From Cupriavidus necator (GTDB taxonomy: Bacteria; Pseudomonadota; Gammaproteobacteria; Burkholderiales; Burkholderiaceae): a stretch of 32,000 nucleotides of DNA. The position numbers and the translations under genes were made by a program. Below are positions 5,502 to 20,469 of the stretch, in pieces (position 1 is the stretch's first letter; each line of letters opens with the position of its first letter). The notes under the pieces are model-generated. The model did no database searches. It was not told the origin of the DNA and was given only the letters and a program-made list of their open reading frames with translations. Location of the stretch: assembly GCF_016127575.1 (NCBI RefSeq), contig NZ_CP066019.1, forward strand, positions 2,610,001 through 2,642,000. The letters are read 5' to 3'.

Positions 5502-6542
5502 ATGGCAAACTTTGAGCACAGGGGCACCACGGTTCGTGCCCTAGTCCGCATGAAAGGCCAGCGAGTCAGCGCTACTTTCGACAATGAGAAGGCGGCGCAT
5601 GAGTGGGCGCGGAAGACTGAAAAGCGCATCAGCGAAGGCGAAACCATCCGCAAGTACGATGACACCAGCGACCCTTCCGTCGCCTATCTCCTAGAGAAGT
5701 ACGCCCGCGATGTTTCTGGTGGCAAGCGTGGGGCTAAGGTTGAGCGCTATACGCTGACAGCAATGTCCCGCGACTTTCCGGAGATATTCGGCAAACGCGT
5801 AAGTGAGTTTCGCAAGGACGATGTGGAGGCGTACATCAAGAAGCGCGGCAGCACGACAAGCAGGTTTGGCCGCAAGGTCGCACCGGGCACGATAATTCGT
5901 GAGGTGACGGTTCTGTCAGCGGTGTTTAGCTACGCCATTCGGCGCTGGGAAATGCCGTTCTTTAAGAGGGAGAACCCAGCCCAAGGCATCGACAATAGGC
6001 CAAAGTCCACAGAACACAGGAAACGGCGCGTCAGTGACGACGAGGTCAAACTCATTTGCGCACAGCTCGACTATGTAGAGGGCACTGTCCCCAAAACGAG
6101 CAAGCAATGGACTGCATGGGTCTTTCAGTTCTGCCTAGCAACAGCAATGCGTAAGGGTGAAGTGCTTGCCGCAACGTGGCAGCACGTACACACCGACGAG
6201 CTATATATCCATTTGCCGGAAACCAAGAACGGCTACGCCCGGGACGTGCCGCTAAGCCCACGCGCAATCGCACTGCTGGCAAGCCTTAAGCAAGGCAAGG
6301 GCGCTCAATTGGTCGCGCCAGTCAAATACAAGACCCTGGACAGCGCATTCTGGCGCGCCAAAACGGAGATCGGCATTCAGAACCTACACTGGCACGATAG
6401 TAGGCACGAAGCAACGACGCAGTTGGCAAAGAAGCTCACAAACACCCTTGAGCTTGCAGCCGTGACCGGGCATAGGTCGCTGGCGATGCTGCATCGCTAT
6501 TTCAACCCGACCGCGACAGAAATGGCGCGCAAGCTCGTATAG
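5502..6542 (+). CDS. int: Tyrosine site-specific integrase (phage integrase family)
   Basis: The C-terminal catalytic region contains ATAMRKGEV (Arg), HWHDSRHEA (HxxR) and GHRSLAMLHRY (His and Tyr nucleophile). An N-terminal SAM-like domain is present. Confidence 0.92.
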   Translation: MANFEHRGTTVRALVRMKGQRVSATFDNEKAAHEWARKTEKRISEGETIRKYDDTSDPSVAYLLEKYARDVSGGKRGAKVERYTLTAMSRDFPEIFGKRVSEFRKDDVEAYIKKRGSTTSRFGRKVAPGTIIREVTVLSAVFSYAIRRWEMPFFKRENPAQGIDNRPKSTEHRKRRVSDDEVKLICAQLDYVEGTVPKTSKQWTAWVFQFCLATAMRKGEVLAATWQHVHTDELYIHLPETKNGYARDVPLSPRAIALLASLKQGKGAQLVAPVKYKTLDSAFWRAKTEIGIQNLHWHDSRHEATTQLAKKLTNTLELAAVTGHRSLAMLHRYFNPTATEMARKLV

Positions 6543-8050: not shown

Positions 8051-10057
8051 ATGGAAAACGGCCATTTTGAGCAAGGCCGCGCCCGCGACGCGCTGTCTTG
8101 CCTCGACGCCGGGTGCTCACGTGGCGAATGGATTCGCTTGGGCATGGCCGCGAAGGCGGCCGGCCTTTCCTTCGAGGACTTCCATTTGTGGAGTCAGAAC
8201 GCGCCGAACTACAAAGGCGAACGCGATTGCCTGACGGCGTGGAACTCCTTTGACGATGGCCCGATTACCGAGTCAACGCTCTTTCGCGCTGCCCGTGATG
8301 CCGGCTGGCAGGGTCTCTATAAGGCGCCTCGGAATGGCGTAGGCACCATCCACGCATTGATCCAACGCCCGAAGGAACAAGCCGAACCACAGGTCGCTCC
8401 GAAGGTGCGCATCGATCCTGTATCCGCTTTTGACGCCTACCCTTCCGCTCCGGCGGAGCATCCCTATATCGTCGCCAAGCGCGGCACGGCGGACGGTTTG
8501 CGCATTGTCCCCATAGAAAATCCGCTGGCAATCCGGGGGAGGTCCGTGGCTGGTTACCTAGCCGTCCCGGTACGCTCGCTCGACGGCGAACTGCGGACGG
8601 TCCAATACATCCCGCCTCCGGGCGCGGGCGAGAAGCTGAACGCGCCAGGCGCTTCCTTCGGTAGCGGCATGTTCGTCGTCGGCGAAGTCAGCGCCGATGG
8701 TCGCATTTACATCTGTGAGGGCATCGGCCACGCATGGGCTGTGGCGCGCGCAGACTATCAAGCAGCTGCCGTCGTCACGTTTGGTGCGGGCCGGTTTCGG
8801 GTCGTCGGACAAGCTCTGCGTGAGCGCTACCCCGATGCGCGCCTTGTATTCGTGGCAGACCGTGGCAAGGAAGCCGAGGCCGAAGGCATCGCCCGCGAAC
8901 TCTGTGGCTCGTGGGTGGTCGCGATGCCCGGCGACAAGCCGCCGAATTACGACGCGAATGACTACGAACTCGAGCACGGCACCGAGGCGCTGGAGAGCTT
9001 GCTGCAAGCCGCCAAGGCACCGCCCATGCACTACCAGTTGCAATCGGGGGCCGATCTGATGGACGTGCCCATGCCGCGCTGGCTAGTGCGGGGCGTCCTG
9101 CCTGCCGATGCCCTCGCCGCCTTGTTTGGCCCCTCTGGCTCCGGCAAATCCTTCATTGCCCTGGACCTGTGTGCCGCCATCGCAGATGGGGCGCCAGAAT
9201 GGTTCGGTCGCCGCGTTACTGGCGCGCCTGTCACGTATTGCGCTTTGGAAGGTGCGCGTGGGCTGCAAAAGCGGATACATGCATGGACTATTAGGCACCA
9301 TCGTCCGTTGCCGGCTCGCCTGAGATTTATCACGCAGGGCATCGACCTGCGTAACCAGGACGACATCGCGGACCTCGCTGCCGCCGTCGTTGCTAGTAGC
9401 GCAGGTGATGGCCTGTTGGTGCTTGATACGCTGAACCGTGCCGCTCCAGGCGCCGACGAGAACTCCAGCAGGGACATGGGTGACCTCATCGAAGGCGCAA
9501 AGGAGTTGCAGCGGCGGATTGGCGGCGTCGTTTTGCTGGTTCATCACACTGGAAAGGACGGCACGAAAGGTCTGAGGGGGCATAGCAGCCTATACGCCGC
9601 GCTGGACGTCGCCATCGAAGTATCGCGCACTGACAGCCGCCGTGAGTGGTCCATCGCCAAGAGCAAAGACGACGAGGATGGTGCTCGGGCTGCCTTCGTA
9701 CTGCGGGTGGTGGAACTCGGGAGTGATCCAGACGGCGATCCGGTTACATCCTGCATCGTCGAGCCAGATGGGGCAACCGCCGCCGACACGGTGCAGCGGT
9801 TGAAGCTACCGCAAGGCTCGAACCAGAAGATTGCCTATCAGGCTATCGGGGAGTTGTTGCGCCATGCAAAGGACTTCGACAAAGGCGGCGCGCCGAACGG
9901 TCGCCCCTGCATCCAGATCGACTCCGCATTTGCAGCCGTTGCTGCGCGAATGCCATGCGCCGAGGAAAGCCGCCGGTACGTCGCGCGGCGCGCGGTAACC
10001 GCAATGGTCGGCAATGGCATTTACCAAGTCCGGGAAGGCTGGTTATGGCACGCATGA
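8051..10057 (+). CDS. Bifunctional primase / replicative helicase-like ATPase (PriCT-2 + Toprim + RepA/AAA_25-type P-loop)
   Basis: The N-terminal PriCT-2-like block is RGEWIRLGMAAKAAGLSFEDFHLWSQ...WNSF. The Toprim-like part is ICEGIGHA...VFVADRGKE. Walker A is GPSGSGKSF and Walker B is LLVLDTLNRA, followed by LLVHHTGKDG. Confidence 0.85.
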   Translation: MENGHFEQGRARDALSCLDAGCSRGEWIRLGMAAKAAGLSFEDFHLWSQNAPNYKGERDCLTAWNSFDDGPITESTLFRAARDAGWQGLYKAPRNGVGTIHALIQRPKEQAEPQVAPKVRIDPVSAFDAYPSAPAEHPYIVAKRGTADGLRIVPIENPLAIRGRSVAGYLAVPVRSLDGELRTVQYIPPPGAGEKLNAPGASFGSGMFVVGEVSADGRIYICEGIGHAWAVARADYQAAAVVTFGAGRFRVVGQALRERYPDARLVFVADRGKEAEAEGIARELCGSWVVAMPGDKPPNYDANDYELEHGTEALESLLQAAKAPPMHYQLQSGADLMDVPMPRWLVRGVLPADALAALFGPSGSGKSFIALDLCAAIADGAPEWFGRRVTGAPVTYCALEGARGLQKRIHAWTIRHHRPLPARLRFITQGIDLRNQDDIADLAAAVVASSAGDGLLVLDTLNRAAPGADENSSRDMGDLIEGAKELQRRIGGVVLLVHHTGKDGTKGLRGHSSLYAALDVAIEVSRTDSRREWSIAKSKDDEDGARAAFVLRVVELGSDPDGDPVTSCIVEPDGATAADTVQRLKLPQGSNQKIAYQAIGELLRHAKDFDKGGAPNGRPCIQIDSAFAAVAARMPCAEESRRYVARRAVTAMVGNGIYQVREGWLWHA

Positions 10058-11708: not shown

Positions 11709-12971
11709 CTAGTCCCAGTCTTGGTCGGCCTCCTGCCCATCAGCATTGCTTATCCATAGTTCGCCATCGTCATAGGCGCTAACACTTAGCTCGCGATGTC
11801 TATAGCGGATCGCGGTCGTCGATACCAGTCTAATGCTTCCGTCCACATACTTGAGCCGGAACGCATCTTCAGGCTTGTCGGTAAGTAGCCCCTTGTCGGC
11901 GAACAAAACGATGTTTATTCCGCCGGCTCTCTGTACCGAAGAGAAGAGGATTCCATCGAATGGCTTCTCATGGACATGGGCAAGGTATTCAGCCATCGTT
12001 TGAGTAATGAGGTAATCTGACTCCCGGCCTGGAACGATTGGCTGAGATATTAGGCTGTGGAGTCGGCGCAGGAATTCGCGACGTTCAAGCTGGTCGGTGA
12101 AATCCGTTTGAAAGTAGCTCAGTGCCTTCCCGCTGCGTGCGTCGTCCAGACGGGTGAAGTCCAGAACGCGTAGCGCATGCGTGGTCTGCATGGTAATGAT
12201 TGCGACCTCGCTTCCGAGCGCCGGCCGCATCTCCGCCAGACATGTTTCTGAATCTCTCGCCCCATATAAAACTACGACGCCCTCCGCATTCATGCGGCCA
12301 GCTCTAGCGTTCTCGGCTGGAGGCGGCCCTACATGCTTTATCGGATCGGCGTAGATTTCTTTGAGAAGCGATCGCGAGCTACACAAGCGGGCTCGAAAGA
12401 TCTTCGTCCCCTTTGGCAGGACGCGAACGACAGGGTGGAGTCGAGTGCCTTTTCTGGCGCGCAATTCATCGATTCCTTGAAACAGCTTCTCGAATAGTGC
12501 GCGCGCGGACGGGCTGAAGAACCGACGCCCATGCTTCAGTTCATTCAGTGTGTAACTCCACTCCTCAAAGTAGCGACCAGTGCGAATTCGTGTGGGCACG
12601 TAGTTACTTGTTTCATCCCAGTAGGCCTCTCCACCATCGCCCGGCCAGTAGTCATCTGCGTCGACAATTGCAGAGACAATCTCGTCTTCGAAGTCAAAGT
12701 ACTGGCCTAGCACGTCCTGGACGAAATACGAAAGTGAGTCGCCCTCTTGTTCCCACCACTCCGAATCGTTGTCCCCGAACCTCTTCACCGTTTGGCCAAG
12801 GCCGAAGTGCTCGCGCATGATCGGCTCCATGATTTGGCCAAGGCGTCGGATTGTGATTGCCTCGCGCTCCAACTCGTCGCAAACCGAGCATTCAATCTTC
12901 TCCCCCTCCGCCTTGATGATCTCGCTTAGGTGGAGATCTTTGACGCAGCCGTAGCAGACTGCTCGTTCCAT
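11709..12971 (-). CDS. RES-domain protein (NAD+-targeting toxin family) with extended N-terminal CxxC...CxxC domain
   Basis: RBS GAGGAG. The RES signature is FRAR, GRMNAEGVVVLYGARDSETCLAEMR (Arg and Glu) and DGILFSSVQ (Ser). The N-terminus carries CYGC (aa 6-9) and CSVC (aa 28-31). Confidence 0.8.
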   Translation of the reverse strand: MERAVCYGCVKDLHLSEIIKAEGEKIECSVCDELEREAITIRRLGQIMEPIMREHFGLGQTVKRFGDNDSEWWEQEGDSLSYFVQDVLGQYFDFEDEIVSAIVDADDYWPGDGGEAYWDETSNYVPTRIRTGRYFEEWSYTLNELKHGRRFFSPSARALFEKLFQGIDELRARKGTRLHPVVRVLPKGTKIFRARLCSSRSLLKEIYADPIKHVGPPPAENARAGRMNAEGVVVLYGARDSETCLAEMRPALGSEVAIITMQTTHALRVLDFTRLDDARSGKALSYFQTDFTDQLERREFLRRLHSLISQPIVPGRESDYLITQTMAEYLAHVHEKPFDGILFSSVQRAGGINIVLFADKGLLTDKPEDAFRLKYVDGSIRLVSTTAIRYRHRELSVSAYDDGELWISNADGQEADQDWD

Positions 12972-15525: not shown

Positions 15526-16188
15526 CTATTCCACTGTGCCTAATCTGGAAGCCGCTGCGCAGTAAACAATTGCGGCACGCTGGCAATCCCCCAAGGCCCG
15601 GTGCATATCGGAAGTGTCCAAGTTCCCATCTTTTGCAATCTCAGCCAATCGGTAGCTTTTCCGGTCGGGCCATGCACGCCGTGACATTTTTAGTGCACAC
15701 GAAACTGGATTTGCAAATGTTATCGAACTCTTTCCGGCGGCCTTGGAAATAAAGGCCATATCAAATTCGGCATTGAACGATACGAGTCGCAAGTTGCCCG
15801 CGAATTTGGCAAAGTCTTGAACTGCAGACTCTAGGGAGACTCCCTCTGCCTCAATCATTTCAGGTGTTATACCGGTAAGTTCCGTAATTTTTTTCGGTAC
15901 TTTCCTTGATGGCTTTACCAAAACCTGAAATGTATCGTGATTGTTTGAGTTTCGATTCACTCGGATTGCACCTATTTCTAGGATTTCATGTCGCTCCGAG
16001 TCAAGTCCAGTTGTTTCAATATCGAACACAACAAATCGCTCCGGAAGGTGTGCCAGTGGATTGCTAGCTACCAGTCGAGAAGAAGTGCTGAAAGAAGTTG
16101 AAGGAACTGGATCGCTGCTGTCCTTCGTTAACTTATAAATGAGGACGGCAATTAACCCTATAAGCCCAAGGAAAATAATCAATTCCAT
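15526..16188 (-). CDS. DnaQ-like DEDDh 3'-5' exonuclease with N-terminal transmembrane anchor
   Basis: RBS AAAGGAAG. The TM helix is ELIIFLGLIGLIAVLIY (aa 2-18). ExoI is FVVFDIETTG (D56, E58), ExoII is SFNAEFD (D143) and ExoIII is HRALGD (H196, D201). Confidence 0.85.
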   Translation of the reverse strand: MELIIFLGLIGLIAVLIYKLTKDSSDPVPSTSFSTSSRLVASNPLAHLPERFVVFDIETTGLDSERHEILEIGAIRVNRNSNNHDTFQVLVKPSRKVPKKITELTGITPEMIEAEGVSLESAVQDFAKFAGNLRLVSFNAEFDMAFISKAAGKSSITFANPVSCALKMSRRAWPDRKSYRLAEIAKDGNLDTSDMHRALGDCQRAAIVYCAAASRLGTVE

Positions 16189-17228: not shown

Positions 17229-19040
17229 ATGCGACTCGAAGCCGTAGAGGTTCTTGGATTCAAACGCCTGCAGAAAATTGAGCTGCTTACACCGTCAATG
17301 ACAGTGCTCGTCGGAGGCAACAATTCAGGCAAGTCGTCGCTGCTTCAAGCCATTCATTTCGCTGTTACTGTTCTCCAGTCAGCCCGTCTCTCCGCTGATG
17401 GGGGGAAGCCAATGAACACGCTTGGTTTCGATCAGTTCATATACAAGCCAACGGGCGACCTTATTCAGCTCAATCATGGCACTCCGATTACGTCAAAAAC
17501 GGGCCCGGAGTTCACCTTCACCTATACCGATGCCGGCGCAGCGGAGCATCTGGAGTTCCAACTCAAGTTGCGTCGGGGAAAGAATGCGAACATCGCGATC
17601 ACGTTTGAAGATGAAAGCACGTTCTTTATTCGCGCAGCCAATCGGAGCCAGCCTTTTTCTGTCTTCGTGCCTGGTCTAGCAGGAGTGCCTCTTCGGGAAG
17701 AATTAAGAACACCATCGGTCGTCGCAAACGGAATCGCCCAAGGCGATTCAAATATCTATCTTCGGAATGTTCTTTACCGAATCTGCAAAGACGATGCAAA
17801 GCTGATGCGATTCCACGAAGTGATCGCCTCCGTCTTCCCAGGTCTAACCATCTCAACAGCATTCGACCCCGAAGCTCACCTGTACATTGATATCTCTGTG
17901 CATCTGGATGGGCGCACTGTGCCGCTCGAAATGGTTGGCACCGGCGCACTTCAAGCCATTCAGTTGGTGGCATATGTCACAGCCTACGATCCGGCACTCC
18001 TTTTGCTCGACGAGCCTGACGCGCATTTGCATCCGTCAAACCAAAAGCTATTGGCATTGACGTTACAGAAAATAGCCGAGGCCGGCAGCACCAAGGTAAT
18101 CTTGGCCACGCACAGTCGCCACATGTTCGACGCACTCGCACGCGACGAAGCAACCCAAATTATCTGGCTGAAGGATGGAGGAAAGCAGGAAGGAGCCGAG
18201 CGGAATAACCTTTCCGTGTTACTCGATCTCGGCGCACTGGATAGCTTCGAGTTAGTACACGCCGGCCAAAAACGAATTGTCGTCCTCACGGAAGACACAA
18301 AGGTCGCTAGGTTGGAAATCTTCCTGCGTGCGAATGGCCTGAATGATGCCGACTACTTCCTCCAACCCCTACACGGCGTTAACAATTTGGCGGCAGCGGT
18401 CCCCATCGCCGATTACTTTACGAGGCAAGGTGACAATACTCACGTCTTAGTACATCGCGACGGGGACGGCATGACAGATGCTGAGAAGACTTGGTGGCTA
18501 GAGAACGAGTCAAAGAAGCTGCCTGATCGAACAACTGCCTTCATCACGCCGTTCACTGATATTGAACATACCTTCTGCAGGCCTGCTCACATTTCGGCCG
18601 TCTACGGTATTCCTGAAGCTGACTCCGAAGCAATGATGGCAGCAATCATCGCTGCCAACCAAGCTTTGCTTGCAGCCGAGTTTGCGCAGAAGAGAGTTAG
18701 CCTCAAGGACACCACACTTAAAAGGATGAAGGACGCCTCATCCGCAACAGACATGCTGGCTGGCGGTTTGAAATTCGAACACATCAAAGGCAAGAGGCTG
18801 ATGGCGCTTGTGCAAACAGCTCTTCAACAGGCGGGGCACAACCCGATGCGGTTGACAAGCACACCATCTGCAGCGCTTGTGTATGCACCTCTGCGCGACA
18901 AAATTGCCGCCATCAAGGCAGCAGTGGCTGCTGCTGAGGCAGCTGCTCAGGCCGCTGCTCCTGAGGCTGCCGCTGGGGCAGTGGCTGAAGTGGCTGCTGC
19001 CGGCGAGGCTGCCGCTGCTGGCGAGGTTGTGCAGCAATAG
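17229..19040 (+). CDS. OLD-family / fused PARIS-like nuclease: ABC-type ATPase (AAA_15/21-like) + Toprim/DUF4435-like domain + Ala/Glu-rich tail
   Basis: Walker A is GGNNSGKSS (aa 29-37) and the signature-like block is GTGALQ. Walker B is LLLLDEPDAHLHP (aa 257-269), followed by ILATHS. The Toprim-like part has VVLTED (E355) and VHRDGDG (D411, D413), 56 aa apart. Confidence 0.8.
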   Translation: MRLEAVEVLGFKRLQKIELLTPSMTVLVGGNNSGKSSLLQAIHFAVTVLQSARLSADGGKPMNTLGFDQFIYKPTGDLIQLNHGTPITSKTGPEFTFTYTDAGAAEHLEFQLKLRRGKNANIAITFEDESTFFIRAANRSQPFSVFVPGLAGVPLREELRTPSVVANGIAQGDSNIYLRNVLYRICKDDAKLMRFHEVIASVFPGLTISTAFDPEAHLYIDISVHLDGRTVPLEMVGTGALQAIQLVAYVTAYDPALLLLDEPDAHLHPSNQKLLALTLQKIAEAGSTKVILATHSRHMFDALARDEATQIIWLKDGGKQEGAERNNLSVLLDLGALDSFELVHAGQKRIVVLTEDTKVARLEIFLRANGLNDADYFLQPLHGVNNLAAAVPIADYFTRQGDNTHVLVHRDGDGMTDAEKTWWLENESKKLPDRTTAFITPFTDIEHTFCRPAHISAVYGIPEADSEAMMAAIIAANQALLAAEFAQKRVSLKDTTLKRMKDASSATDMLAGGLKFEHIKGKRLMALVQTALQQAGHNPMRLTSTPSAALVYAPLRDKIAAIKAAVAAAEAAAQAAAPEAAAGAVAEVAAAGEAAAAGEVVQQ

Positions 19041-19176
19041 GCTAGTGGACTAGTGCGCAAACCGCTTCGGCGGCACCGCGCCGGGTCCATCGCCGACCGC
19101 GTGAGCGCGTCCACGGCTCGTTAGTAGGCCACGCTCCGAAGTAGAATGCTGCCGAATATGGACCGTTCGGAGACCA

Positions 19177-19950
19177 ATGGTGGCATTTCAAATAAAACGT
19201 ATTGTCGTGCCCTATGAATCGCTCAAGGAAATGGGCGCCGAGAACCAATATGCGCTATATCTGCTTGGGCACATTTACAACGAGATAATGTGCCTAAACA
19301 GGTGGTCGGTCCTGGCGAGGCGAGATGTTTCTGGCGGTGTCGACGCAGAGCAGGCCGGCGCGGTCTTTAATATCATGTTCGTGACGCGGATTCTGGCTGG
19401 AAAACTATACGAGGCAAAGTTAATAATTAGCCAGAAAATTGTTAAGCAGTTCCTAGAAGGATATTGCTACCCACATATGCCAGAATCAGACATCGCCGGA
19501 TTGAAGGCTCTCAACAGGGCTATGTCACAATGTAAGTGGATTAATCCCGCAAGGAATGGGCATGCGATGCATTACCCGGAGTTTGAGAACTGCAAAGAAG
19601 CTATAAATGCATTGAATTTTGGGAAGCAAGGTTTTGAGATTTTTGCTGGCGGCAGCTTCGGTGCGACGATGTATCGCACCTCCGACGTCATGGCAGGAGC
19701 CGCCTTTATTTTCGAGGCCAATAGAGATTGGGGCGTCGGCTTAAACACAATTGTCGAAGACGTGCTGAGCTTAAGTCATCAGGTCACTGAGTTCACCAAC
19801 TCTGCAATCGGCGCTTTTGTCAATAGCATAAAGTCTGGCTCTCGGTCATATAGCGAAAGAGTCAAGATTAAGGATGTTCCGAAATTTCCCATTCCTGATA
19901 TGACGGACTTCGTCTTGCCATACTTCATGGTGGTAAGGGACAAGGACTAA
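19177..19950 (+). CDS. Hypothetical protein with Rx5H HEPN-like motif (possible partner or effector of the OLD-like gene)
   Basis: 257-aa AT-rich ORF with GGAG 4 nt before the ATG. It looks predominantly helical. ARNGHAMHY (R126...H132) fits the Rx4-6H pattern with a polar residue after the Arg. Confidence 0.6.
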   Translation: MVAFQIKRIVVPYESLKEMGAENQYALYLLGHIYNEIMCLNRWSVLARRDVSGGVDAEQAGAVFNIMFVTRILAGKLYEAKLIISQKIVKQFLEGYCYPHMPESDIAGLKALNRAMSQCKWINPARNGHAMHYPEFENCKEAINALNFGKQGFEIFAGGSFGATMYRTSDVMAGAAFIFEANRDWGVGLNTIVEDVLSLSHQVTEFTNSAIGAFVNSIKSGSRSYSERVKIKDVPKFPIPDMTDFVLPYFMVVRDKD

Positions 19951-20469
19951 CGTCGGAATCTCTTGAACGGTACTGCCCCCGGCCGCTTAATTTTCATCCA
20001 GTCGGGCGAGCGCTCGCCATCCCGATACAGCGACCCGGCGCGCTTCCCGACTACTCCCTCTAGGCCGAGCGTGAGAACGTGGCCGTACAGCCATGCGCCA
20101 TCCTCTATGCTGTCCACGTACAGGATTCCCGCCGGCGAATCGGCCAACAATCGGCGGAGTGCCGACTTGCGACGCTCTATAGGCTGCCCGCACAAGTCTT
20201 CCCCCTTCCCTACTAGCAGGTCAAATACGCAGTGGGCGACCAGGTCCGCGCGCTTGTACCAACCCTTGCGCCGGGCCCGCGCCCGCAACCGCTCGAAGTC
20301 GCTCCGGCCCGATGTCGTCTAGCTCGCCGACTATGAACTGGAACGGGTAGACTACTTCCTGGCACAAACGGTCGAGCGCTGGGGAGCGCAAGGCCAAGGC
20401 CCGCCGCCGGTCAGTAGTCAAACGGCGATGGATGAGAAGTCGGGCGTTGCTGGAAAGAGCAGCCTTCAC
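19947..20469 (-). pseudogene. ATP-dependent DNA ligase (LigD ligase-domain-like) remnant, frameshifted and truncated at both ends
   Basis: Two adjacent minus-strand frames carry ligase blocks. FIVGELDD is motif III-like, VFDLLV..GEDL is IIIa-like, LEGVVGKR is IV-like and SPDWMKIK is V-like. There is no KxDG motif I and no OB domain. Confidence 0.65.

Follow-up and report, generated by a model that had tools for sequence, protein, structure and literature searches.

Two neighbouring genes on chromosome 2 of Cupriavidus necator H16, encoding proteins of 603 and 257 amino acids (aa), are probably independent cassettes of one gene each that happen to adjoin within the defence-rich cargo region of an integrative island. 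The genes were analysed within a stretch of 32,000 nucleotides (nt), hereafter the window, and database matches identified its source as well as the two open reading frames (ORFs), H16_B2391 (603 aa, 100% identical) and H16_B2392 (257 aa). An earlier interpretation made from the letters alone, here called the sequence-only reading, had proposed that both ORFs form one two-gene anti-phage system, in which an OLD-like sensor is paired with a HEPN-like effector. Both ORFs are real, and the motifs quoted in that reading lie where it had placed them and are conserved in homologues; the pairing found no support, as the two families were not seen to co-occur outside the window. A literature search for both locus tags found nothing. 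The two genes, the spacer between them and the gene fragment that follows are listed below (GC, guanine plus cytosine).

17229..19040, forward strand: 603-aa ORF H16_B2391, with an ABC ATPase, a Toprim-like domain, a helical domain and a low-complexity tail
19041..19176: spacer between the ORFs, 136 nt, 64.7% GC, with TTAGTA-15-TAGAAT at 19121-19147 and GGAG 5 nt before the ATG
19177..19950, forward strand: 257-aa ORF H16_B2392, from a large helical family without annotation
19947..20288, reverse strand: truncated ATP-dependent DNA ligase, matching PF01068 columns 115-204 only (E=1.4e-12), part of neither cassette

The independence of the two genes is seen in their genomic distribution. When every ORF of the loci collected up to then was scanned with hidden Markov models (HMMs) for the two families, the families were found together in the window only, so a two-gene system is not supported. 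The ATPase HMM gave no match at E<=10 over nine further loci of the 257-aa family, and the co-conservation of this family with OLD-like neighbours, on which the sequence-only reading had made its idea depend, was not found. Five distinct contexts were examined for the 603-aa family, with 44-85% identity:

Cupriavidus sp. RAF12, 85% identity: DruA/CoiA_N upstream, a trypsin-like gene downstream
ENA metagenome homologue, 82%: Mrr_cat upstream, an S49 fragment and DUF5677 downstream on the opposite strand
Paraburkholderia homologue, 77%: PLDc_2/cREC_REC upstream, bPH_2 downstream on the opposite strand
Homologue in a metagenome-assembled genome, 76%: unrelated neighbours on both sides
Enterovirga homologue, 44%: a glyoxalase upstream, a UvrA paralogue downstream

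No neighbour recurs among these five contexts, no member of the 257-aa family lies within 6 kb, and in DNA alignments of the ATPase loci from other genomes the similarity stops at the ATPase stop codon. Defence genes adjoin the ATPase homologues elsewhere, namely DruA, Mrr_cat and PLDc_2. The context definition of the OLD field assigns single genes to class 1 (PMC10568477). Because no neighbour recurs and the DNA similarity ends at the stop codon, the 603-aa gene has a class-1-type arrangement by this definition, standing in all five contexts as a single gene without a conserved partner. The sequence-only reading had stated that its idea would fail if the 603-aa protein matched a classified single-gene class 1 OLD system, and the family does behave as a single-gene class-1-type OLD-like cassette. 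Near one ATPase homologue, on the opposite strand, lies a gene for a 262-aa DUF5677 protein (L007 8451-9239, reverse strand), which is unrelated to the 257-aa family by HMM. On plasmid A of Crocosphaera subtropica, an ATPase relative of 35% identity is found within a same-strand gene run (L024 3167-9365) made up of a gene of the PAPS-reductase family, the ATPase, a pair of large hypothetical genes and an FtsK/SpoIIIE gene; because of this run, more remote branches of the ATPase family may belong to systems of several genes.

About 12 distinct contexts were examined for the 257-aa family, none of which has an ATPase of the 603-aa type as neighbour, and a pattern scan for its closer subfamily gave three short metagenome contigs and five viral contigs. 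The positions of the family member in the loci were as follows.

L017/L018, 48%-identical homologue: at a prophage end, in the order endolysin, holin, Dam methylase, family member, three small genes, integrase
L015/L016: immediately behind a tyrosine integrase, from which a 55-nt gap separates it (L015 2781-2835), with a DUF4928 / C5-methylase pair following
L031, L033 and L034 (IMG/VR prophages): immediately preceded by a large serine integrase (Resolvase + Recombinase)
L033 1653-1656: 4-nt ATGA stop/start overlap with the large serine integrase
L031 1627-1656: 27-nt gap after the serine integrase
L032: adjoining a tyrosine integrase
L030: at a contig end
L021: with an integrase fragment nearby
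L014 (Ramlibacter): in a group of small hypothetical genes

The 257-aa family occupies the ends of prophages and islands, in many cases with a serine or tyrosine integrase as its immediate neighbour. Because these two integrase types are mechanistically unrelated, the adjacency suggests a cargo hotspot and not a functional partnership. The large ORF upstream of the family in viral contigs was considered as a conserved partner and rejected, being the large serine integrase. An SRAP gene lies downstream of the family member, on the opposite strand, in L030 and L031.

The composition of the locus agrees with a patchwork. Both genes belong to a stretch of low GC, about 16 kb long (50-60% GC versus 65-72% in its flanks) and are of foreign composition within the cargo region: the 257-aa gene has 47.3% GC and the 603-aa ATPase gene 53.7%, against 66-70% in the flanking host genes, and GC at third codon positions (GC3) is near-equal in both (0.56 and 0.57). 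The description of the 257-aa ORF as strongly AT-rich thus holds relative to the host, but only in that sense. The spacer, with 64.7% GC, is unlike either gene, and its folding is no better than that of shuffled sequence (z=0.52). The 257-aa gene is preceded by a GGAG ribosome-binding site of its own and by a weak promoter-like hexamer pair; this pair, put forward in the sequence-only reading as a possible promoter, is present, but the consensus promoter scanner called none in the spacer, the 15-nt hexamer spacing being outside its accepted range. The ligase fragment retains only the C-terminal part of the adenylation domain and is host-like in composition (GC 0.635, GC3 0.746). Because of this composition and of a 4-nt overlap with the stop codon of the 257-aa ORF, a recombination or insertion junction is suggested exactly at the end of that gene. 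The spacer composition, the separate ribosome-binding site and promoter-like hexamers and the abutting host-like fragment together suggest a mosaic of separate insertions.

The 257-aa protein is a member of a large family. An exhaustive HMMER search with a three-sequence profile yielded 813 cluster representatives with a cut-off of E<=1e-3, or 279 with one of E<=1e-10, the clusters being formed at 50% identity and the representatives being nearly all full-length (245-270 aa). Word-indexed search badly under-reports the family (3, then 14 matches, versus 813) and found just two relatives of the window protein, at 43% identity; tblastn of this protein against INPHARED phages and PLSDB plasmids gave no match. 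Three conserved motifs were recognized in the ORF:

19267-19284, forward strand: G31-H32-x2-N35-E36
19402-19413, forward strand: K76-x2-E79
19552-19572, forward strand: R126-N127-x4-H132

E79, R126 and H132 are the sole invariant columns of a 51-sequence alignment of the family, in which G31, N35, N127 and P248 are conserved at >=90%. Among the family representatives the arginine is kept in 158/160, the histidine in 160/160 and the glutamate in 155/156, and the residue after the arginine is N in 139/160, D in 7 and H in 1. As judged from these counts, the conservation of R, N and H is far beyond chance. The segment ARNGHAMHY with R126-x5-H132, which the sequence-only reading had singled out, is accordingly the most conserved feature of the family, and it is placed as in HEPN proteins.

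The AlphaFold2 (AF2) model of the 257-aa protein has a predicted local distance difference test score (pLDDT) of 95.2 and a predicted template modelling score of 0.90. It contains helices at residues 21-47, 56-84, 87-100, 103-118, 122-130, 136-148, 167-178 and 185-220, together with small terminal beta elements. HEPN domains are defined by two alpha-hairpins, frequently with an insert between helices 2 and 3, by a polar residue after the arginine and by a conserved acidic residue in helix 2 (PMC3710099). When mapped on the model, helix 1 corresponds to residues 21-47, helix 2 to 56-84 with E79, the insert to 87-100, helix 3 to 103-130 with R126-N127 near its end, and helix 4 to 136-148, H132 being in the loop before it. 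R126-x5-H132 agrees with the HEPN motif Rx4-6H, N127 is the expected polar residue (N/D/H) after the arginine, and E79 is the acidic residue of helix 2; the deviation is in its basic partner, K76, which forms K-x2-E and is not at +4. The predicted secondary structure and the motif placement thus appear to fit the published HEPN description well, and at the level of motifs the protein would be counted as HEPN, the fold search having returned no HEPN neighbour.

Several results weigh against a HEPN assignment. None of 51 family members matches Pfam, PADLOC or PHROGs significantly, and the same is true of the HEPN-clan Pfam models; marginal matches were seen for single members with HEPN_AbiU2 (E=0.022) and Ribonuc_2-5A (E=0.033). 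NCBIfam gave no match for the window protein, in accordance with the earlier statement that it could be matched to no family, and the family profile found nothing among PDB chains. Foldseek with the predicted structure, the check for a HEPN core that the sequence-only reading had proposed, returned generic helical bundles and no HEPN protein, with best E values of 0.18 (PDB) and 0.14 (BFVD). Because the HEPN motif features are present while no family model and no structural neighbour was found, we assign the 257-aa protein to a HEPN-like family that is new, a convergent fold being the less likely alternative; by analogy with HepS of prophage Gifsy-1, it is plausibly a stand-alone HEPN-like RNase of abortive infection. 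A fuller description, in which the family is an immune enzyme of new structure that unites sensor and effector in one protein, has an E/R-N/H site that is either very divergent HEPN or convergent, is carried at an integrase-proximal hotspot and in H16 perhaps cooperates with the OLD-like ATPase, is put forward tentatively and is on balance doubtful.

The protein might also be no HEPN RNase at all, but an enzyme or binding protein of another, structurally new kind in the service of the mobile element, for example in excision/integration control or superinfection exclusion given its position beside integrases, or an anti-defence protein. The lack of significant Foldseek neighbours of any kind in PDB and BFVD despite a model of pLDDT 95, the lack of a significant HEPN-clan Pfam match and the location of the gene directly after serine integrases (with the 4-nt ATGA overlap in L033) as well as tyrosine integrases would all agree with this. 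Small helical HEPN cores inside larger proteins often escape full-length fold search. Moreover, two mechanistically unrelated integrase types argue for a cargo hotspot and not for a recombinase partnership, no integrase adjoins the gene in the window, L014 or L017, and the invariant E/R-N/H constellation and its placement agree with the HEPN definition point by point. We therefore consider such a function rather unlikely and retain the HEPN-like interpretation.

The larger gene encodes a protein whose parts are given below.

17229..18158, forward strand: ABC ATPase head, residues 1-310
17313-17339, forward strand: Walker A GGNNSGKSS, G29-S37, with K35 at 17331-17333
17997-18014, forward strand: Walker B LLLLDEPDAHLHP, L257-E262, with D261/E262
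18270..18578, forward strand: Toprim-like core, residues 348-450, from AF2 secondary structure and invariant residues
18579..18908, forward strand: C-terminal helical domain, residues 451-560; the AF2 model has helices at 452-544, and H454 and K488-R489 are invariant
18909..19037, forward strand: Ala-rich low-complexity tail, residues 561-603, with a degenerate 27-nt tandem repeat at 18917-19012

At least 579 homologues were found at E<=1e-10, mostly of 560-590 aa. Pfam, PADLOC and NCBIfam recognize only residues 1-310 of the protein, as an ABC ATPase. The Pfam matches are AAA_15 (1e-24), AAA_21 (4e-20) and SMC_N, with a weak DUF2813 match at residues 1-46, and the top PADLOC matches are AriA (best, 2e-25), NsnB, MAD3, Old and GajA. 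In a family alignment of 31 sequences, which reaches down to 41% identity, the invariant ATPase residues are K35, Q69, G237/G239/Q242, D261, E262 and H298. The complete ABC ATPase described in the sequence-only reading, with Walker A, Walker B and ILATHS, is thus present and (near-)invariant, and the protein carries the N-terminal ATPase of class 1 OLD with Walker A/B, Q-loop, signature and H-loop. The AF2 model (pLDDT 85.9), searched at full length with Foldseek, matched PtuA, SMC/Rad50 heads, the Thermus scotoductus OLD protein (TsOLD, 547 aligned columns), GajA and the Eco8 OLD protein; the alignments to the three last-named span the full length, but the ATPase head dominates the scores.

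The start and the tail of the protein also deserve comment. The database entry of H16_B2391 has 580 aa and begins at M24 of the 603-aa ORF. The start at 17229 is supported because the homologues all begin at the equivalent of M1 (MELQAVEV.GFKRL...) and because F11/K12 are invariant; the annotation is thus probably too short by 23 codons at its start, a truncation that removes the first conserved ATPase beta-strands. The Ala-rich tail has a GC3 of 0.91 versus 0.57 in the remainder of the gene and is disordered in the AF2 model (pLDDT ~38-55). A recombination scar was considered for this GC-rich, host-like tail and rejected as the sole explanation, since all homologues have similar variable tails, which are Ala/Thr-rich, of low complexity and 10-35 residues long.

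Residues 350-439 of the AF2 model form a beta-alpha-beta-alpha-beta-alpha-beta unit. Beta1 (350-354) is followed by E355-D356, beta2 by G383, beta3 (405-410) by D411-G-D413 and beta4 by D444-I-E446-H447. In the 31-sequence alignment the invariants of the C-terminal half are E355-D356, G383, R410-D411-x-D413, E419, W422, D444-x-E446-H447, H454 and K488-R489, which include the residues E355 and D411/D413 that had been picked out beforehand. In the TsOLD active site, E377 and D431/D433 bind metal A and S478-x-E480 binds metal B, with R487 in addition (PMC7049728). On the predicted model, the placement of E355 and D411-x-D413 corresponds to the canonical Toprim pattern of Glu and DxD and parallels this active site. 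For the metal-B and catalytic Arg/Lys positions, D444-x-E446 after beta4 and K488/R489 in the next helical domain are invariant, against V359 at position E+4. Because class 2 OLD proteins draw their catalytic K562 from a C-terminal helical domain (PMC7049728), the helical domain 451-560 may likewise have a catalytic role in supplying K488/R489.

A number of tests speak against this assignment. Position E+4, an acidic metal-B ligand in OLD, is the valine just mentioned. Residues 310-603 scanned alone had no Pfam match at E<=10; neither the window protein nor any of 19 family members matches Pfam OLD-like_TOPRIM (PF20469), even at E<=10, or DUF4435, while positive controls are recognized by PF20469 (P2 Old 1.2e-17, YbjD 3.8e-16); and no PDB chain matched a profile of the isolated C-terminal domain at E<=10. 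With hhalign the comparisons with P2 Old and with YbjD were non-significant, and that of the family profile with a reference of seven OLD sequences from classes 1 and 2 gave E=0.15, out of register. A co-linear YbjD alignment (E=0.07) failed this profile-profile test and was treated as chance. PADLOC on the 19 family members gave a single marginal AriB match (E=0.023, 1/19), and plasmid-borne relatives of 28-36% identity had no Toprim match except one to DUF4435 (E=0.2). The Toprim/DUF4435-like region of the sequence-only reading therefore stands in its beta-alpha topology and canonically placed acidic residues, but not in any match to a Toprim_OLD or DUF4435 model. Because the sequence-level tests failed while the topology and motif placement fit, the C-terminal domain is described here as 'Toprim-like, divergent' on the evidence of the predicted topology and the motif placement, and the whole reads as a divergent class-1-type OLD-like protein.

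A less probable explanation, which we consider distinctly unlikely, is that the C-terminal domain is not a catalytic Toprim nuclease and that the ATPase acts alone as a sensor, scaffold or DNA-binding ABC protein, the alpha/beta domain being regulatory or another acidic-residue fold such as a PIN-like or receiver-like one. The negative outcome of every sequence and profile test for Toprim alongside passing positive controls, and the missing acidic residue at E+4, count in its favour, and so does E. coli YbjD, whose phenotypes are reported to need the ATPase but not the Toprim domain (PMC13261556). Against it, E355, D411, D413, D444 and E446 are invariant to 41% identity, which speaks for a conserved site of catalysis or metal binding, the residues stand at the strand ends as in the canonical Toprim pattern, the sole marginal matches for the region are with AriB and DUF4435, both Toprim families, and the ATPase is of the type that accompanies Toprim domains in OLD, PARIS, Gabija and retrons (PMC12409363). 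The divergent OLD-like assignment is accordingly preferred.

Some observations count against two separate cassettes. The sampled contexts are few (5 and ~12) relative to the sizes of the families (>=579 and 813), and several contigs are short. Both genes lie on one strand with a gap of 136 nt, in which no forward-strand terminator was found, so they may be co-transcribed and locally coupled in H16. One two-gene system, with the OLD-like ATPase-Toprim protein as sensor and the HEPN-like protein as effector or the reverse, would draw on this arrangement, on the foreign composition of both genes inside the cargo region and on the recurrent pairing of ABC ATPases with HEPN/Toprim effectors, as in PrrC/RloC and ERFG_01251 fusions (PMC3710099) and RemA-RemN in Gifsy-1 (PMC13043305), but is very unlikely given the lack of co-occurrence in all the contexts sampled, the end of homology among ATPase loci at the stop codon, the distinct spacer, the ribosome-binding site and candidate promoter of the 257-aa gene and the typically integrase-adjacent, solitary position of its family.

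Other features of the island are as follows.

5502-6542: tyrosine integrase, island backbone
8051-10057: PriCT_2/AAA_25 replication protein, 668 aa, with a weak Toprim_3 match, island backbone
11709-12971, reverse strand: RES-domain protein, 420 aa (RES 2.5e-18), with a weak match to HEPN/RES N-terminal domain 1
15526-16188, reverse strand: DEDD exonuclease (RNase_T family), 220 aa, with a hydrophobic N-terminal segment MELIIFLGLIGLIAVLIY

The RES protein is a further candidate toxin or defence gene of the same cargo, and the exonuclease gene, with 46% GC, is the lowest in GC of the island genes. The boundaries of the island are undefined because the window contains no tRNA gene and no convincing att-type direct repeats were found to flank it.

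By analogy with characterized relatives, a working scheme can be proposed for the activities, triggers and defence roles of both proteins. The first gene would represent a widespread stand-alone family (~570 aa) combining an SMC/Rad50/OLD-type ABC head with a divergent Toprim-like, metal-dependent nuclease domain. The head would dimerize on ATP and control the Toprim-like active site, with E355, D411, D413, D444 and E446 as putative metal ligands and K488/R489 contributed by the helical domain. As in class 1 OLD and PARIS, ATP binding or hydrolysis may gate the nuclease after a phage cue, and the nuclease may then cut DNA (as OLD) or tRNA (as AriB) and halt the infection. The product of the second gene would be a metal-independent RNase using R126, N127, H132 and E79, probably oligomeric, silent at rest and switched on by a phage component. 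HepS offers the model for this, as a partner-less prophage HEPN protein that is activated by a phage component (PMC13043305).

Neither protein fits any curated family. If this interpretation is correct, the locus adds no new multi-gene architecture, but two sizeable families that are missed by current defence annotation. The 603-aa family would be a stand-alone ABC-ATPase/Toprim-like group whose nuclease domain evades every curated Toprim model tried, and it would bear on the questions raised in the OLD review of whether class 1 OLD proteins act in defence on their own and how many OLD classes exist (PMC10568477). The 257-aa family would add to HepS a second lineage of HEPN abortive-infection proteins that lack a partner, and it raises the question of how a lone toxin stays silent and what it senses; it is the better and more valuable lead of the two. 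Both families can be tested directly by simple cloning and point mutants.

Comparison with known systems places the two proteins as follows. The absence of the known partner genes (helicase, reverse transcriptase, separate DUF4435) was correctly noted in the sequence-only reading, as the window ORFs and domain scans showed. Unlike Gabija, the locus has downstream of the ATPase a 257-aa helical protein without a helicase motif or Pfam match, and no helicase lies downstream in any context of the 603-aa homologues; true GajA-GajB pairs are present in the comparison loci L039 and L040. The locus also differs from retron-associated (class 3) OLD in that the ATPase gene is flanked by an opposite-strand 127-aa ORF and the 257-aa ORF. 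No reverse transcriptase domain was found in 12 scanned window proteins (10 neighbouring island genes and both ORFs), the 127-aa ORF and non-coding RNA not being included in the search. PARIS is closer, as AriA is the best PADLOC match of the ATPase half and the marginal C-terminal matches are with AriB and DUF4435 only, and fused single-polypeptide forms of PARIS exist (PMC12409363); the 603-aa protein differs in having no significant DUF4435/AriB match and no separate AriB gene, the PADLOC AriAB model covering the ATPase part only.

The closest parallels of the 603-aa protein are the class 1 OLD proteins (P2 Old, TsOLD, E. coli YbjD and Vibrio cholerae OLD). The resemblances include a single gene with an N-terminal ATPase followed by a C-terminal alpha/beta domain, a distance of 56 residues from the Glu after beta1 to the DxD after beta3 (54 in TsOLD), a later [S/D]-x-E, a similar length (~570 aa) and a location on mobile elements and in defence islands. 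The differences are the lack of an OLD-like_TOPRIM match and the negative hhalign comparison with the OLD reference, V359 in place of the E+4 acidic ligand together with an invariant D356 at E+1, the extra conserved helical domain 451-560 (K488/R489), which is nearer to class 2, and the variable Ala/Thr-rich tail. Having the architecture and context of class 1 OLD but not its Toprim sequence signature, the protein is regarded as a divergent variant.

For the 257-aa protein the nearest counterpart is HepS, which is likewise stand-alone, carries Rx4-6H, occupies a prophage accessory-gene position and has no co-occurring partner or inhibitor (PMC13043305). The two differ in that no similarity was detected between them by sequence (PDB profile) or Foldseek, that HepS has Rx4H at 100-105 versus Rx5H at 126-132 here, and that the 257-aa protein is longer (~255 aa) with a C-terminal helical and beta extension; an ORF with R100/H105 (hepS) was sought in the Gifsy-1 (LT2) record and none was present. 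Compared with the HEPN abortive-infection proteins AbiD/F, AbiJ, AbiU2 and AbiV (Anantharaman et al. 2013), the family has K-x2-E in place of the typical E-x3-[KR] and no significant HEPN-clan Pfam match, but shares with them R-[N]-x4-H, a conserved acidic position on the long helix before it, an insert of helical structure separating helices 2 and 3, and residence on mobile elements.

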